Shown: piece by piece, positions 56,715-64,000 of the stretch
How positions within the stretch are numbered: the stretch's first letter is position 1
How the letters are laid out: every line of letters starts with the position of its first letter
The notes under the pieces: model-generated
The model's input: only the letters and a program-made list of their open reading frames with translations
Told to the model about the DNA's origin: nothing
The model's database searches: none
Program-made: the position numbers and the translations under genes
Assembly (NCBI GenBank): GCA_963707635.1
Contig: OY970173.1
Location: 2,848,001-2,912,000, forward strand
Direction: 5' to 3'
DNA from: Candidatus Latescibacterota bacterium
GTDB lineage: Bacteria; Krumholzibacteriota; Krumholzibacteriia; WVZY01; JAKEHA01
Length of the DNA stretch: 64,000 nucleotides

Positions 56715-56942
56715 GGCGGGCTCTTGCAATCGACGCTACCACAGGCGGCGCTTTTCCGGCCACCCACGCGCTCGGAGAACGGCCTTGACTTTGACTCCGC
56801 GACGACTACACTAGGGCGATAATTTTTGCCGGCGCCCCTCGGACCCGCCGGCGGGCGGTGCCGCCGGGAGGAATCGCGCCGCCGACTCCGACTCTTCATC
56901 ACGCAGACACGTCGAAAGTTTGCCTTTTTTGGGAGCGAACGA

Positions 56943-57659
56943 ATGAAGCGCACCTATGCGTTCTGGGCGGCCGTGTCCCTGTGTCTGGTCGCATCGGCGG
57001 CCCCCGCGCTGGCGCAGGAACAGCCCCCAACCTCGAGCCCGACCCAGCCCCCGGTTTCGGCGGCAGAAGACACGCTCAAGACCACCGGCGAGGAGAAGCC
57101 GGCTGCGGCTCCGGCAGTGGCGCCGCCCGACACCATCACCACGGGGGCGCGCTCGCGACGCGCCAGCAAGGCGCAACGCACGATCCATCCCATCTTTTCC
57201 CTCGGCATCGGCTCCGCGGTCAACTACCAGCCCGATTCCTTCGCCGAAAACTACGATCCATCGTTCGGCATTCTCTTGAGCGGCGGCGCGCGTCGCGGAC
57301 CCTTCATCCTGGCCGCGTCGTTCGACTACAACTTCTTCTTCGCCAGCGGCACGACCCCCAACGATCTCAACGTGCTGATGGTGTTCGCCGATTTCAAGTT
57401 CTCTCCCCTGTCCGGCGCGGCGCAGCCGTACCTGCTGGTCTGCGGCGGATTGTATCGCACGTGGATCGTCGACGAGGATTACACCGAGATGGTGATGGGG
57501 TCCGGCGGTGGCGCGGGCGTCGAGATGAAGATCGGCGAGACCCGGCGGTTGTTTCTCGAAGGCCGCTACATCCAGGGGCAGACTCGCGAACGCACCGAGG
57601 ACGCGGCGAACACCGAGGTCATCCCCTTCCGCTTCGGTATGACCTGGGAAATACAGTAG
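56943..57659 (+). CDS. Outer-membrane beta-barrel protein with Pro/Ala-rich N-terminal linker
   Basis: Signal peptide, amphipathic strands, PYLLVCGG, FLEGRY, C-terminal FGMTW. Confidence 0.75.
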   Translation: MKRTYAFWAAVSLCLVASAAPALAQEQPPTSSPTQPPVSAAEDTLKTTGEEKPAAAPAVAPPDTITTGARSRRASKAQRTIHPIFSLGIGSAVNYQPDSFAENYDPSFGILLSGGARRGPFILAASFDYNFFFASGTTPNDLNVLMVFADFKFSPLSGAAQPYLLVCGGLYRTWIVDEDYTEMVMGSGGGAGVEMKIGETRRLFLEGRYIQGQTRERTEDAANTEVIPFRFGMTWEIQ

Positions 57660-59425: not shown

Positions 59426-62400
59426 CTAGCGCACGCGGACGCGATACGTTACGACGCCCGCCTGTCCCGGCGCGAGATAGAATGTCGCGTTGCGGGAAAG
59501 CACCACGCGCAGTGTGCGGTCGGCGCTGGTGTACTGGCACTCGTCCGCGTCCGACGGGTCGAAGGTGAACCACACCGGCGTCCCCGACGGCGGCTGCCAC
59601 TCCACGTCGAAGCCCGCGCCGAACGCGTTCGGCTCGACATCCACCCACGACGAGACCGGATCCACCAGCATCACATTGGCGAGACTGTCGGCGCCCGCGT
59701 TGAAGAGACGGACCGAATACGTGATCACGTCGCCCGGGCGGGCGTCGGTTCGATCGAGCGATTTCTGGACGGAAAGCTGTCCCGATCCCGCCGGCGCGAC
59801 CACGATGGCGTCGGCCGCGTTTGCGGTCAGCGTGATGGACGTCCCCGTTACCGTCTGCGTCGCGAGAATCGACACGGCGATCGTCGACCCCGGTGTCGCG
59901 CCGATCGGAACGAACACGCGCAGCAGCACGGTGAGGACACCGCCGCCCGGACCATCCGGGTCGAGGTCCCCGTCGGCCGCGACCAGCGGCCGGTCGGGGC
60001 CGTCGAGCAGGCCGTTTCCATTCGCGTCGAAATACCACGCCGTGGCCACGGCGGAGTCGGCGGTGGCGGTGAGGTCGACGTGACCGGCGGTACGGGCCTG
60101 GACACGGTGCCCGAAGTCGACGAACGCGCCCGGCGTCCCCGGTGACACCCCGCCCGCCGACAGGGTGAGAATGCCGATGTCGCCGAAGTCCGCGACGACG
60201 GAATCACCCGCGGCCACGACGCCGGTGTGAACCGTGTCCGGCGTGAGCGACACGAAGCCGATCGGGTTCTGCTCGATCACCACCAGGCTATCCGCCGGCA
60301 CCGCCAGCGCGTAGCTGCCGTCCCCGAGCGTGGTCGCGGAGAGACCGCTGCGCGCCTCGGTGACGAGCACGCCCCCCAACCCGATATCGCCGGCGCCGAA
60401 CACGCCGTCGTGATTGCGATCGTCGAACACCGTGCCGCGAACCAGCGCGCGGGTCTCGGTGACGAGGGCCACGCTCTCCGCCAGATTCGGCGGGAGACTC
60501 GACCACGCATTGATCAGCGTCGTGTGCGCCCCGTTGGCCGTGACCGGGACGCTGACCGCCACCGTGTAACGCTTGAGCTGCCCCGGGTTGAGAATCCGGG
60601 ACCAGAACGGAGCCGCGTGCACGACGAGAGAATCCTGAACCGTCACGCTGCCCGCCGGCCAGCCGCTGGGCACCGTCCACTGGACCCGGAAGGAATCCGG
60701 GAACGAGCCCGCGTTGCGCAGGTCGAGCTGCGAGACGTACGCGCTGCCCGGCGCCGCGCCACGCGTGGACGTGCCCCCCTGCCCGGAGCCGAGCAGTCCG
60801 AACACACCGGTGCCGTTGCCGTCGATGGCGAAGTCGGGGCGCGGGGGGCCAACGATGGCAACCCGCGCCGCGATACTCTCACGACTCGTCGGGTGGTTCT
60901 GCGACGTAATGTCGAGAATGTACTGGTAGGTGGCCGTCGCGGCCCCGGCCGGGACGGTCACGGTGAACGTGTACAGCCGCGAACCACCCGCGGGGACCAC
61001 CCCGGTGATAAACGGTGACGGCAACCCCGCGAGTCGAGCAGTCCAGGCGGAGATCGTGTTCCATTGCACGCGGTAGGTGTCCCCGCTCGGTCCCTGGTTC
61101 TGGAGCTCGACGGTGAAGTTCAACGTTCTGGGCGCAGGCGTGGTCTGCAGCGAACTCCCCCCCGCGCCGCTGCCGAGCGCGCCGAACACACCGTTGCCCT
61201 GGCCGTCGATCACCGCGTCGACGATGGCGGGCGGAATCACCACCACGCGGCCCGTGACACTGTCCATGAGGAACGGCTTGGTGGTCTTGCGTCCGTCCGC
61301 GATCACGTCGAACGTGCCGCCGGTCGAGCCGGGCGGGACGATGATGCGCAACGGATACGTCCCCGCCACGATGTTGGTGAGCGGCGCGACGCTCCCGTTG
61401 AAGGTCACGTTCCACCCGGGCGGAGTACTCCACGACACGTCGAAGCCGTTCACCCCCGACACATTTTGAACCTGCACCTGGAACACGACCGTGTCCCCGG
61501 GTGAGACGGTTTGGGTCGAGGTTCCGCCCAGCCCGGTGCCGACCGGTCCGTAGACGTCGGCCCCCTGCCCGTCGACGAGCATGTCGATTTCGCTGGGCGT
61601 CGCCACGCTCACGGTCGCGGAGACGCTTTCGGTGACGACCGCAGCCACCCGTGAGGCGGCGTTTAGCACCGAGAGGTACGTGCCGTACGCGGCTCCCGCG
61701 GGGATGTTGATGCGCAGCGTGTAGAACGCCTGGGCGTTGGGCGCGATGGTGGGCGTCACGGTCGGGAAGTTGCGCGCCACACCGCCGATGATGATCGCCG
61801 CCGTCCAGCCCGCGCCCGGCGCCGTCCACGACAGCGTAAAGGAGTCGGGCAATGCGCTCTCGTTCTGCACCGTGATCGGAAAGAGCACCTGCGCGCCGCG
61901 CTCGCCGGCGTTCGAGCTGCCGCCGCCTTTGCCCGTGCCGGTGGCGCCGTACACGTTGTCGCCGCTGGTCGCGATGATCATGTCCACGCGCGGCGCCAGC
62001 AGGCGCAGGATGGCGTGGACCGAGTCGCGCTTGTTGGCGTCGGCGCTCGAGGTGGCGCTGAGATTGACGTCGTAGTCGCCGCCTGGGTTGGGGGAAGCGA
62101 CCTGCATCCGCAGCGTGAGGAGCGCGGTCCCTCCGGCCGGGATGCTCGCGGTGGTAAACGGACCGGAATACGTGGTCGCGTTGTAGATCACCGAAGTGAC
62201 GAGACCCGCCTCGCTCGTGAACGCGATGGCGTAGGTGCTCGCCGCGTTGCCGGTGTTGTGCAGCTCGAGCGCGAAGTTGGCCGGCGTGCCCCAGGTCGAC
62301 GTCTTGAGCCCGAAGCCGCCGGCGCCGTTGTCTCCGATCACGCCCACGCCGTTGCCGTCGATGACGAGGTCGGCGCCGTGGGTGGCCGCCGTAATCAGCG

Positions 62401-63385
62401 CGCGCAGACGCGCGCTGTCGACGCGGCTGGCCTGGGTGGTGCTTTGCGCGTTTACGATCGCATCGTAGGTTCCGGCGCCGGCGGCCGCCGACGCGCGCAG
62501 CCGCACGCGGTACGTCGCCACGGCGCCGGGGGCGAGCGCCGGCATGACGTACGGAAACGCCTGCGTGGTCGCGCCGATTTCGAGCCACGCCGTCCACCCC
62601 GCCGGGAGCGTCGACGTGAGCCGGTAGGTGTCGGCGACGGTGCCCTCGTTCTCCACCCGCAGATCGTAGGACAGCGTGTCGCCGGCGAACGCGCTGTGCG
62701 ACGACACGCCGCCGTTTCCGCTCCCGAGCGCGCCGAACACGTCGTCGCCGTTGCCGTCCACCGCGAGGTCGGCCCACATCCGGTACACGAGCGACACGTC
62801 GTCGACGTAGGTCCACGTCTCGTAGAGGTTGTCGTAGAGGTTCGCCTGTTCGAAATAGAGGCGCACGGTCTGCCCGGCGAACGCGATCACGTCGTGCGAC
62901 ACCGGCAGCACGTTGTCGTCGCTCAACCATCCACTGTCCTTGTAGATGTCGTTCCACTCGCTGAACGCGTAGAGGAGCACGCGGCGCAGCAGCGTGTTGC
63001 CGGTGGATCGGATGTCCGCGTAGAAGGGGTCGTAGTAGTCGCTGTCGTAGCCCTGCATGCGGATCTTGAAATTGAGCGTCGCGCGCGAGACGCCGGCTGG
63101 AATCGAGACGGTCTGGTACATGTACGCGTGGGTGTTGGTCACCTGCGCCGTGTACTTGAAGCCGAGCAGCGCCGAATAGTTGCCCGCGTAGGGCAGGTCG
63201 AGTTTGACGGCATGATCGGCGTAGGTGGCGTTGTTCGTGGTGCCGCGGAATGCCCCGTGGACCCACGCCGTGCCGAACGAACCGGTCTCGAACCCGCCGT
63301 CGACCACCAGTTCGCCGGCGACGGAGGCACGCGCGGCCAGAACGGCCAGCGATGCGGCGAAAATCACGAACGCGAATCGTCTCAT
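59426..63385 (-). CDS. Large secreted adhesin-like protein: jelly-roll head, six Gly-loop Ig repeats, SdrD B-like domain, C-terminal DUF11
   Basis: Signal peptide MRRFAF, DGGFE...YVDDVSL head, 6x DxxxDGxGxxVxG repeats, GTVFDDRNHDG, VQKS..ARPGDVITYSVRLFNAG..VDP. Confidence 0.85.
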   Translation of the reverse strand: MRRFAFVIFAASLAVLAARASVAGELVVDGGFETGSFGTAWVHGAFRGTTNNATYADHAVKLDLPYAGNYSALLGFKYTAQVTNTHAYMYQTVSIPAGVSRATLNFKIRMQGYDSDYYDPFYADIRSTGNTLLRRVLLYAFSEWNDIYKDSGWLSDDNVLPVSHDVIAFAGQTVRLYFEQANLYDNLYETWTYVDDVSLVYRMWADLAVDGNGDDVFGALGSGNGGVSSHSAFAGDTLSYDLRVENEGTVADTYRLTSTLPAGWTAWLEIGATTQAFPYVMPALAPGAVATYRVRLRASAAAGAGTYDAIVNAQSTTQASRVDSARLRALITAATHGADLVIDGNGVGVIGDNGAGGFGLKTSTWGTPANFALELHNTGNAASTYAIAFTSEAGLVTSVIYNATTYSGPFTTASIPAGGTALLTLRMQVASPNPGGDYDVNLSATSSADANKRDSVHAILRLLAPRVDMIIATSGDNVYGATGTGKGGGSSNAGERGAQVLFPITVQNESALPDSFTLSWTAPGAGWTAAIIIGGVARNFPTVTPTIAPNAQAFYTLRINIPAGAAYGTYLSVLNAASRVAAVVTESVSATVSVATPSEIDMLVDGQGADVYGPVGTGLGGTSTQTVSPGDTVVFQVQVQNVSGVNGFDVSWSTPPGWNVTFNGSVAPLTNIVAGTYPLRIIVPPGSTGGTFDVIADGRKTTKPFLMDSVTGRVVVIPPAIVDAVIDGQGNGVFGALGSGAGGSSLQTTPAPRTLNFTVELQNQGPSGDTYRVQWNTISAWTARLAGLPSPFITGVVPAGGSRLYTFTVTVPAGAATATYQYILDITSQNHPTSRESIAARVAIVGPPRPDFAIDGNGTGVFGLLGSGQGGTSTRGAAPGSAYVSQLDLRNAGSFPDSFRVQWTVPSGWPAGSVTVQDSLVVHAAPFWSRILNPGQLKRYTVAVSVPVTANGAHTTLINAWSSLPPNLAESVALVTETRALVRGTVFDDRNHDGVFGAGDIGLGGVLVTEARSGLSATTLGDGSYALAVPADSLVVIEQNPIGFVSLTPDTVHTGVVAAGDSVVADFGDIGILTLSAGGVSPGTPGAFVDFGHRVQARTAGHVDLTATADSAVATAWYFDANGNGLLDGPDRPLVAADGDLDPDGPGGGVLTVLLRVFVPIGATPGSTIAVSILATQTVTGTSITLTANAADAIVVAPAGSGQLSVQKSLDRTDARPGDVITYSVRLFNAGADSLANVMLVDPVSSWVDVEPNAFGAGFDVEWQPPSGTPVWFTFDPSDADECQYTSADRTLRVVLSRNATFYLAPGQAGVVTYRVRVR

Positions 63386-64000
63386 CACTTCAACCTCTCG
63401 AAATCGGCCAGCAGCCAGTCGGATAGCAGCATCTGAATACGAATGCCGAAACCCGCGCTCCACGCGTCGGTCGCGGTCACGTCGGGGTCGTCGAATCCAT
63501 TGACGCTGTACCCCACCCCGATGCGCACCGAGCGGTAGACCAGGCGCCCGAGCTCGATGCCGGCGCCGGCCTGCGCCGTCCCGCCCCCGCGCGGTACCAC
63601 CGCGCGACCCCACGCGTCGACGTCCCACCCCCGGCCGAAGTGCCAGACATACTGCGCGAGCGCGAGATCCGTGTTGGTGGTCGCGGACACGCCGTAGCTC
63701 CAGTCCTCGACGTGCTTGTACGCATACTTGAAGCGCAGCTCGTGCGCGGGAGTCGGCATCACGTTCACGTCGGTGGTCGCCACCAGCCGCCACCGGATCG
63801 CGTCCGGGTCGATGGGAGCGTAGCGGTCGTAGTAGCTCTTCAGCATCAGCAGCGACTGGACCGGCGCGAACGGGGACCGGTACGCGCCCGCCAGCGTGGC
63901 GTAGAACTGCGTCTCGTCGTTCGCGCCGTCGCGTTCGCCGAGCCCCATGATATTCTTGGCCAGCCACGCAAACCCGCCACCCAGCTGCTGGGCCGCGCTC
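63385..64000 (-). CDS. C-terminus (partial) of an outer-membrane beta-barrel protein
   Basis: Alternating amphipathic strands, IGVGYSVNGFDDPD motif, TGATG overlap with the adhesin start; runs off the window edge. Confidence 0.75.
   Translation of the reverse strand, partial: SAAQQLGGGFAWLAKNIMGLGERDGANDETQFYATLAGAYRSPFAPVQSLLMLKSYYDRYAPIDPDAIRWRLVATTDVNVMPTPAHELRFKYAYKHVEDWSYGVSATTNTDLALAQYVWHFGRGWDVDAWGRAVVPRGGGTAQAGAGIELGRLVYRSVRIGVGYSVNGFDDPDVTATDAWSAGFGIRIQMLLSDWLLADFERLK

Follow-up and report, generated by a model that had tools for sequence, protein, structure and literature searches.

In chaperone-usher pili (Fim, Pap), Sec-exported subunits with an incomplete immunoglobulin (Ig) fold are completed by the N-terminus of the next subunit, and the pilus combines an acceptor-only tip and a plugged outer-membrane barrel, the 24-stranded usher (PMC13721041). 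A donor-only subunit terminates the chain. In the CLIPPER adhesin of Acinetobacter silvestris (B9T28_05395, 9IFR), which has a head-stalk-OmpA layout, a CnaA-like domain with a Lys-Asp-Asn triad forms an isopeptide bond between Lys715 and Asn806, and the final strand comes after this Asn (PMC12617251, section 2.4). In Clostridium perfringens, donor-strand exchange is combined with an autocatalytic intersubunit Asn-Lys isopeptide bond, backed by mutagenesis for BsaA (PMC11580942). Here we report a locus that is like each of them in part. It lies at the end of a 64,000-nucleotide stretch (the window; positions 2848001-2912000 of contig OY970173.1, assembly GCA_963707635.1) from Candidatus Latescibacterota bacterium, whose genome is a single 3.2-Mb contig. 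Going by the organisms that carry its close homologues, the host most likely belongs to Ca. Krumholzibacteria. The four genes, A-B-C-D, probably specify an adhesive surface fibre of hairpin-complemented, isopeptide-locked subunits, exported through and anchored at the operon's own barrel. An earlier note made from the window had proposed an adhesin with an unfinished last domain, completed by a donor strand from another subunit and exported through a dedicated barrel. This interpretation is supported, with refinements: a donor and an OmpA domain are found within the barrel protein, and the system includes a further small protein that has only an acceptor.

A four-gene operon with complementary half-domains

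The two genes visible in the window (the 3' end of C and all of D) close the operon; A, B and most of C lie beyond it (Table 1). All four genes are co-oriented and lie close together, and C and D are coupled by the TGATG overlap described earlier. Partner subunits had been predicted just upstream of the window, and A, B and C were found there. A, B and D each terminate in a truncated DUF11 domain and end at its last strand; no sortase LPxTG motif, membrane helix or basic tail follows. The motif TPxGTxIxNxA...SNxV opens B and C directly after the signal peptide. Searched against the whole source genome, the donor profile matched B and C only, and the acceptor profile matched A, B and D only; an acceptor is thus lacking in C, and a donor in both D and A.

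The last domain of D is short of two strands

The terminal DUF11 domain of D (PF01345, E = 1e-12) retains the first-strand Lys (Lys1208, in VQKS) and the catalytic Asp (Asp1242, in LVDP) and stops at VTYRVRVR with no anchor or sorting tail, as had been noted before. The Asn strand and the final strand are not in the same chain. An AlphaFold2 model of residues 1196-1319 (predicted local distance difference test, pLDDT, 94.4) folds in silico without a partner. The VIA alignment of model residues 4-124 with positions 18-109 of the 9IFR chain (Z 8.5, root mean square deviation (rmsd) 2.2, 90 aligned) stops approximately 31 residues before the chain end, ahead of the Asn strand (an offset taken from the Lys register and the 9IFR sequence). 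By strand model and alignment, the domain is not a complete Ig sandwich; compared with CLIPPER it is short of two strands, not one, and the bond-forming Asn belongs to the penultimate strand. The earlier note was thus right about the incompleteness, but not in expecting a single missing strand, final and Asn-bearing.

Across loci, 153 of 177 terminal acceptor matches reach exactly to the final residue of the domain, and 176 of 177 come to within 7 residues of it. All 30 internal DUF11 copies carry N-x-[A/S] 7-14 residues further on, compared to 10 of 120 control windows (the motif was picked after the windows had been inspected). The best Foldseek match of D's last domain (E = 1.4e-4) was 5MKC, the RrgA Jo-In pair, a pilin domain split by engineering whose parts are linked through an isopeptide bond. 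TTHA1873 (7WRK), another structural neighbour (Z 8.9, rmsd 2.8, 106 aligned), was rejected as an orthologue of A because the small-protein profile gave no match to it.

The rest of D largely followed the earlier description. Its N-terminus is signal-peptide-like by eye, in agreement with Sec export, and its Ig stalk consists of six repeats of about 130 residues starting at 206, 339, 468, 601, 723 and 851 (NEW3/NPCBM_assoc, E = 1.8e-10). The SdrD-B/DxNxNG region was found in part: DxNxNG/DxxxDG motifs are present at 989, 1120 and 1140, but the SdrD_B match is under the cut-off (E = 0.0023). A jelly-roll head is plausible; a Pfam scan of the head (residues ~24-205) gave no match, and its top Atlas neighbours were clusters without a name, those labelled CBM_4_9 (21% of members) and Cleaved_Adhesin being no more than leads. 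D has a single Cys (Cys1283), and no Cys of the type V pilus lipoprotein kind lies near the N-terminus of D or of B.

A donor hairpin and a triad split between two chains

The complex predicted for the D acceptor and the 43-residue N-terminus of B scored 0.77, compared to 0.00 for the best of 3 controls; the mark applied is one that 116 of 157 solved complexes and 2 of 215 mismatched pairs attain. At least 93% of contacts were shared between runs, and the partner pLDDT was at least 81. Donor residues 13-18 run antiparallel to the Asp-bearing acceptor strand (40-47), and the interface also includes donor 27-39 and acceptor 6-15 as well as all three triad residues, that is, Lys, Asp and the Asn of the donor. 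Going by the register (contacts of Val11 with donor 13 and 15), acceptor Lys13 may lie near donor Asn11. The B hairpin is predicted to fill the groove of D. Prediction and conservation together suggest that an N-terminal extension of one subunit completes the fold of another in trans, and we consider this complementation very likely. A donor from another subunit had been proposed before; the proposal holds, as a two-strand hairpin and not as one strand.

Lys and Asp are both present in 108 of 109 donor-plus-acceptor subunits and in 50 of 55 acceptor-only open reading frames (ORFs) (36 of 37 when fragments and ORFs under 600 residues are set aside), and the donor Asn in 101 of 109 donor-plus-acceptor subunits and 64 of 75 barrel proteins, the classes being assigned by profiles iterated on the same sequences. 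Complete barrel ORFs have a donor in 72 of 80 cases and a terminal acceptor in none. In a control on 2196 opposite-strand ORFs the profiles gave 0 donor and 8 acceptor matches. Judged from these alignments, the catalytic triad is conserved but distributed over two chains, and a Lys-Asn isopeptide lock at the joints is likely. The donor profile had 0 matches among PDB sequences, and a PDB sequence search with pieces of B returned nothing relevant.

Protein C carries a predicted large barrel with a putative plug

Protein C comprises, in order, a signal peptide, the donor hairpin, Ig domains, a complete DUF11 domain without Lys, Asp or Asn, an SdrD_B domain, an OmpA domain (residues 665-763), Big/invasin-like Ig domains and the barrel. 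The model of its C-terminal 771 residues (pLDDT 85.6, predicted template modelling score 0.77) shows six strands, a connecting strand plus beta insert (132-221) and then 31 strands. Closure and strand count are taken from DSSP only; on that basis there are 37 non-plug strands, which a conserved amphipathic segment just N-terminal of the model would bring to 38. The beta insert at model residues 146-221 is a putative internal plug close to the first strands. If circular, a barrel of 38 strands would have a C-alpha diameter of about 69 Å, compared to 45 Å for 24 strands (shear assumed), and may be the largest single-chain outer-membrane barrel. The SprA barrel has 36 strands, an autotransporter translocator 12, and a TonB-dependent receptor 22 with an N-terminal plug. 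As a separate observation, the insert (model residues 133-221; L001:4388-6700) resembles the phage DT57C neck protein 8hqo_R (Z 8.9, rmsd 1.6, 67 aligned).

The barrel is not a known TonB receptor, autotransporter or usher, as judged by profiles and its far higher strand number. A Pfam scan of the region, which included those three profiles, gave no match; the barrel profile had 1 match among PDB sequences, an irrelevant one, and the nearest Atlas clusters were unnamed. "TonB-dependent receptor" labels on some plasmid matches cover only 25-34% of the query. The best structural neighbours, SprA, Deinococcus SlpA and LptD, are all poor (Foldseek TM at most 0.31), and Pfam and PDB profile searches found no sequence relation to them. 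The SprA profile TIGR04189 matched another gene of the source genome, not C; a SprA (type IX translocon) homologue of 2098 residues, over the family cut-off, lies at genome 1296256-1300698. The model is not closely similar to any listed solved barrel, and the absence of a close match is no proof of a new fold.

The earlier note had called the barrel usher-like, and a chaperone-usher pilus that has diverged strongly, its usher enlarged to C and its chaperone represented by A, would share the tip-shaft-terminator logic. The putative plug near the N-terminal strands fits this analogy, and VIA aligned PapC (7lhg) over plug and barrel (Z 11.8, rmsd 7.2, 246 aligned). However, PapC does not stand above unrelated barrels, since SlpA (Z 13.7, rmsd 6.8) and MtrB (Z 12.0, rmsd 13.5) score as high or higher. 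A PF00577 usher search of the source genome gave no match (the E. coli control was positive), hhalign against FimD gave a probability of 0.3%, and 37 strands stand against 24. The subunits are of CnaA-type DUF11 with a hairpin donor, and A is of acceptor type, unlike the strand-donating PapD chaperones. We regard a diverged usher as very improbable.

The gene layout recurs across phyla

The conservation survey suggested by the earlier note showed that this gene arrangement is shared by Krumholzibacteria, Proteobacteria, Desulfobacterota, Nitrospirota, cyanobacteria, Thermus and Deinococcus. The barrel belongs to a large unnamed family, with 2209 representative clusters at 50% identity (E up to 0.001) and at least 560 loci in a GTDB scan. 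Among 61 genomes of the class Krumholzibacteria, 38 had a strong barrel match, 37 of which also matched the small-protein profile (in a few genomes this match is another acceptor, and kin are not independent); one genome (65% complete) matched the small-protein profile only. Twenty Krumholzibacteria loci were fetched, and 17 of the 18 from strong-match genomes read A-B-C-D as far as their contigs extend. The D slot varies (423-residue CBM96-headed, 623-residue and 976-residue forms), and its heads include CBM96 and laminin-G domains.

The 80 GTDB loci studied, the best 80 of 560 by barrel similarity, come from Desulfobacterota-type deltaproteobacteria, Nitrospirota, Gamma- and Betaproteobacteria and others. 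Among the 49 with at least 3.5 kb upstream, a donor-plus-acceptor gene was present in 46 and a small gene in 47; L066 and L067 have divergent donors, seen by eye, that the profile missed. The gene set was likewise found in Acinetobacter, Synechococcus, Thermus thermophilus HB8 and Deinococcus ficus plasmids. Surveys ascertained through the small gene covered Krumholzibacteria and plasmids only. C is split into donor-arm and barrel genes in Thermus, Deinococcus and L057, and the Thermus barrel matches only weakly. The HB8 operon on pTT27 is TTH_RS10905-10925; L136:15893-30249 holds its complete five-gene version, with a 901-residue donor arm and a 1795-residue barrel as separate genes. Plasmid copies in Acinetobacter haemolyticus (L053:6984-20491) and Paracoccus alcaliphilus (L054:8488-16601) appear fragmented or interrupted by insertion sequences.

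Single-chain relatives and the role of the barrel

In all six genomes examined that had a weak barrel match and no small-protein match, the barrel profile aligned near full length. The barrel ends a 6790-residue open frame, with weak DUF11-like repeats numbering about 20, in G037 (L139:2678-19999 plus L140:1-4990), a 4144-residue protein with a beta-helix and DUF11 stalk in G050 (L141:3553-15987) and a frame of at least 2322 residues in G047 (L143:1-6969). All three have one or two OmpA domains between stalk and barrel. Since the very long stalk lies N-terminal to the peptidoglycan-binding domain, it would probably leave through the lumen. A D-B-C chain would restore the single-chain order of head, CLIPPER stalk, SdrD_B, OmpA and barrel. 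Runs of Ser/Thr-kinase-like genes were seen by eye beside these giants (L140:5422-13503, L142:1558-4113).

That the barrel serves as the conduit seems to us reasonably likely. It could instead be an anchor only, with export by the type IX secretion system or a secretin and polymerisation outside, or with the chain acting as a periplasmic envelope tether or spacer. The source genome encodes the SprA homologue and a secretin, the C donor arm is N-terminal to the periplasmic OmpA domain and so periplasmic by default, and arm and barrel are separate genes in the three groups named above. Nevertheless, the barrel accompanies the subunits across phyla, its predicted lumen is very large and putatively plugged, heads such as CBM96 and laminin-G occur, and a chain of about 6800 residues, mostly N-terminal to OmpA, would be too long for the periplasm. 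An anchor alone is an unlikely role.

Proposed assembly

In the assembly that we propose, subunits bear complementary halves of a DUF11/CLIPPER domain, are joined by donation of a two-strand hairpin and would be sealed by an autocatalytic Lys-Asn isopeptide bond. From the tip, the order would be D (head outermost), B repeated and C, with each B N-terminal hairpin completing the last domain of the preceding subunit. The C hairpin would terminate the chain, as do PapH and FimI, the chain terminators of chaperone-usher pili. Because OmpA lies between arm and barrel, the donor arm would thread from the peptidoglycan anchor out through the lumen; the barrel would retain the fibre, with OmpA as anchor.

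We favour, with some reserve, a homopolymer of B. The operon may also encode a modular adhesin of fixed length, that is, a giant divided into D, C and at most one B, with hairpin ligation and swappable tips. In its favour, the single-chain giants share this barrel and domain order, B is large in Krumholzibacteria and Thermus (about 900 residues), and many loci have two different subunits of about 330-420 residues, each of which could occur once. Against this, B bears both halves, donor and acceptor, and conserves the complete triad, so that nothing visible blocks B-B joining; moreover, B precedes C and D in the operon, and its identity across relatives is about 58-84%, compared to 40-73% for D. 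A fixed length is unlikely on this evidence, and a fibre with B repeated is preferred.

Several observations weigh against the proposed fibre, in addition to the profiles iterated on their own sequences, the DSSP-based barrel and the selection of the best-matching GTDB loci. B is broken in the source assembly by a frameshift near genome 2919214-2919216. Homologues in relatives are intact (about 894-905 residues) and in each of 4 runs compared, which come from related strains and not from this one, the contigs are one base shorter at the site; for these reasons an assembly error is likelier than a true pseudogene. L040 is A-B-C with no D after C, a large acceptor-only gene was found in only 18 of the 49 GTDB loci (10-kb flank), and L065 has a barrel without partner genes within 10 kb. 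Among the 30 internal domains, only 4 are followed by a segment to which the donor profile gives more than 5 bits. The complex result comes without atomic Lys-Asp-Asn geometry, and its pass may reflect likeness to complete domains, because both parts are halves of a solved fold. The donor Asn is present in only 7 of 17 Krumholzibacteria barrel proteins, so the base joint would often not be covalent. The SprA homologue and the secretin offer other exits. Concerning L065, we also observed that its barrel gene (L065:9677-15784) carries a donor hairpin; partners may sit elsewhere in that genome.

The small protein A

A consists of one acceptor-type DUF11 domain, and there is no two-domain PapD-like chaperone among the operon genes. 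Its family is homologous to the acceptor domain (hhalign 99.2%), with Lys in 10, Asp in 17 and Asn in 34 of 56 members, the Lys column being uncertain owing to an insertion; in a second alignment, Lys and Asp were both present in 7 of 71. The A of the source genome appears to retain both residues. FlgE, the top PDB match of the small-protein profile (E = 1.7e-5), is probably spurious. A, from a family mostly incapable of the bond, might hold donor hairpins reversibly in the periplasm; we give this role an even chance.

Coordinates and neighbouring genes

Table 1. Features of the operon. Two-dot and D codon coordinates are window positions (genome coordinate = window position + 2848000); the others are genome coordinates.
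Feature	Coordinates	Strand	Remarks
Gene D	59426..63385	(-)	1319 residues, acceptor-only putative tip adhesin
Gene D domain order			signal peptide (by eye), head ~24-205, six Ig repeats, SdrD_B-like and Ig domains, terminal split DUF11
D acceptor domain, residues 1196-1319	59429..59800	(-)	DUF11/CLIPPER without last two strands; AlphaFold2, 9IFR alignment, complex prediction
D Lys1208 codon	59764-59762	(-)	
D Asp1242 codon	59662-59660	(-)	
D N-terminal head, mature residues ~24-205	62771..63316	(-)	putative binding domain, no Pfam match
TGATG overlap, C stop / D start	63383..63387	(-)	TGA 63387-63385, ATG 63385-63383
Gene C 3' end (last barrel strands)	63385..64000	(-)	barrel C-terminus contains GVGYSVNGFDDPD
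Gene C, whole	genome 2917195-2911385	(-)	up to 1936 residues, start uncertain
C donor hairpin	genome 2916988-2916863	(-)	
C barrel	genome 2913760-2911388	(-)	~38 strands predicted, putative plug
Gene B	genome 2919935-2917235	(-)	~900-residue donor-plus-acceptor subunit
B donor hairpin with Asn37	genome 2919857-2919729	(-)	
Gene A	genome 2920433-2919948	(-)	161-residue acceptor-only protein

An Rfam search of 20 kb gave no match. A candidate regulator, a divergent histidine kinase gene (L001:13843-14961, +) with a receiver-like ORF after it, lies upstream of gene A; close homologues (49-68%) were present in the fetched loci of 5 relatives. Within the window, an ORF at 56826-57659 (+) with a likely signal peptide, a small outer-membrane-barrel-like C-terminus and no Pfam match sits between the phosphoenolpyruvate carboxykinase and pyruvate dehydrogenase genes and is apparently unrelated to the operon.

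Comparison with known systems

A literature search, mostly without subscription papers, found no description of this system. Diderm pilus classes are defined by their assembly machinery, and the operon fits none of those tested; it is probably a new class of diderm fibre and translocon. We lean slightly towards a separate cross-phylum class of pilus and secretion system, in which a translocon of about 38 strands also threads single-chain adhesins of up to about 6800 residues. Such a class would be marked by beta-hairpin polymerisation, covalent self-locking without sortase, and a barrel larger than SprA that carries terminator and peptidoglycan anchor. If true, it would be a covalent, enzyme-free pilus of Gram-negative bacteria, would account for many "DUF11 / OmpA family / hypothetical" gene clusters and would provide ligation pairs from naturally split domains, comparable to SpyTag or Jo-In. 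Thermus thermophilus HB8, which carries the operon, is a tractable model organism.

The archaeal thread (Saci_0406; PMC9715654), AbpX and TLP-1 (PMC11494351) are likewise donor-strand-complemented filaments, and intermolecular isopeptides have been proposed for the thread, there between an Asn and the N-terminal amine (PMC9715654). All three differ from the operon in their single-domain subunits and one donor strand, and the passages available mention no barrel. The acceptor profile matched AbpX weakly (E = 0.044-0.14), and TLP-1, with its single-domain protomer and one donor strand (PMC11494351), was rejected as an instance of this system. BsaA differs from the operon's proteins in that it has a TasA fold with one donor strand and a Glu catalyst, is processed by SipW and comes from a monoderm host without an outer-membrane barrel (PMC11580942); no SipW peptidase was seen among the four operon genes, at which no SipW profile search was aimed. 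Autotransporters, whose passenger is fused to its own barrel as in the single-chain relatives, resemble the system only in how they work.

In CLIPPER adhesins the bond is intramolecular and the domains are complete (PMC12617251), and the word "donor" is absent from the main text of that paper; here the domain is split between proteins. The Jo-In pair was engineered from one chain, whereas this split is natural and lies on separate genes. Compared with chaperone-usher pili, the operon uses a two-strand hairpin donor, a triad split between chains and multi-domain subunits, and it dispenses with a PapD-like chaperone; the terminator and OmpA are fused to the barrel, which has about 38 predicted strands.

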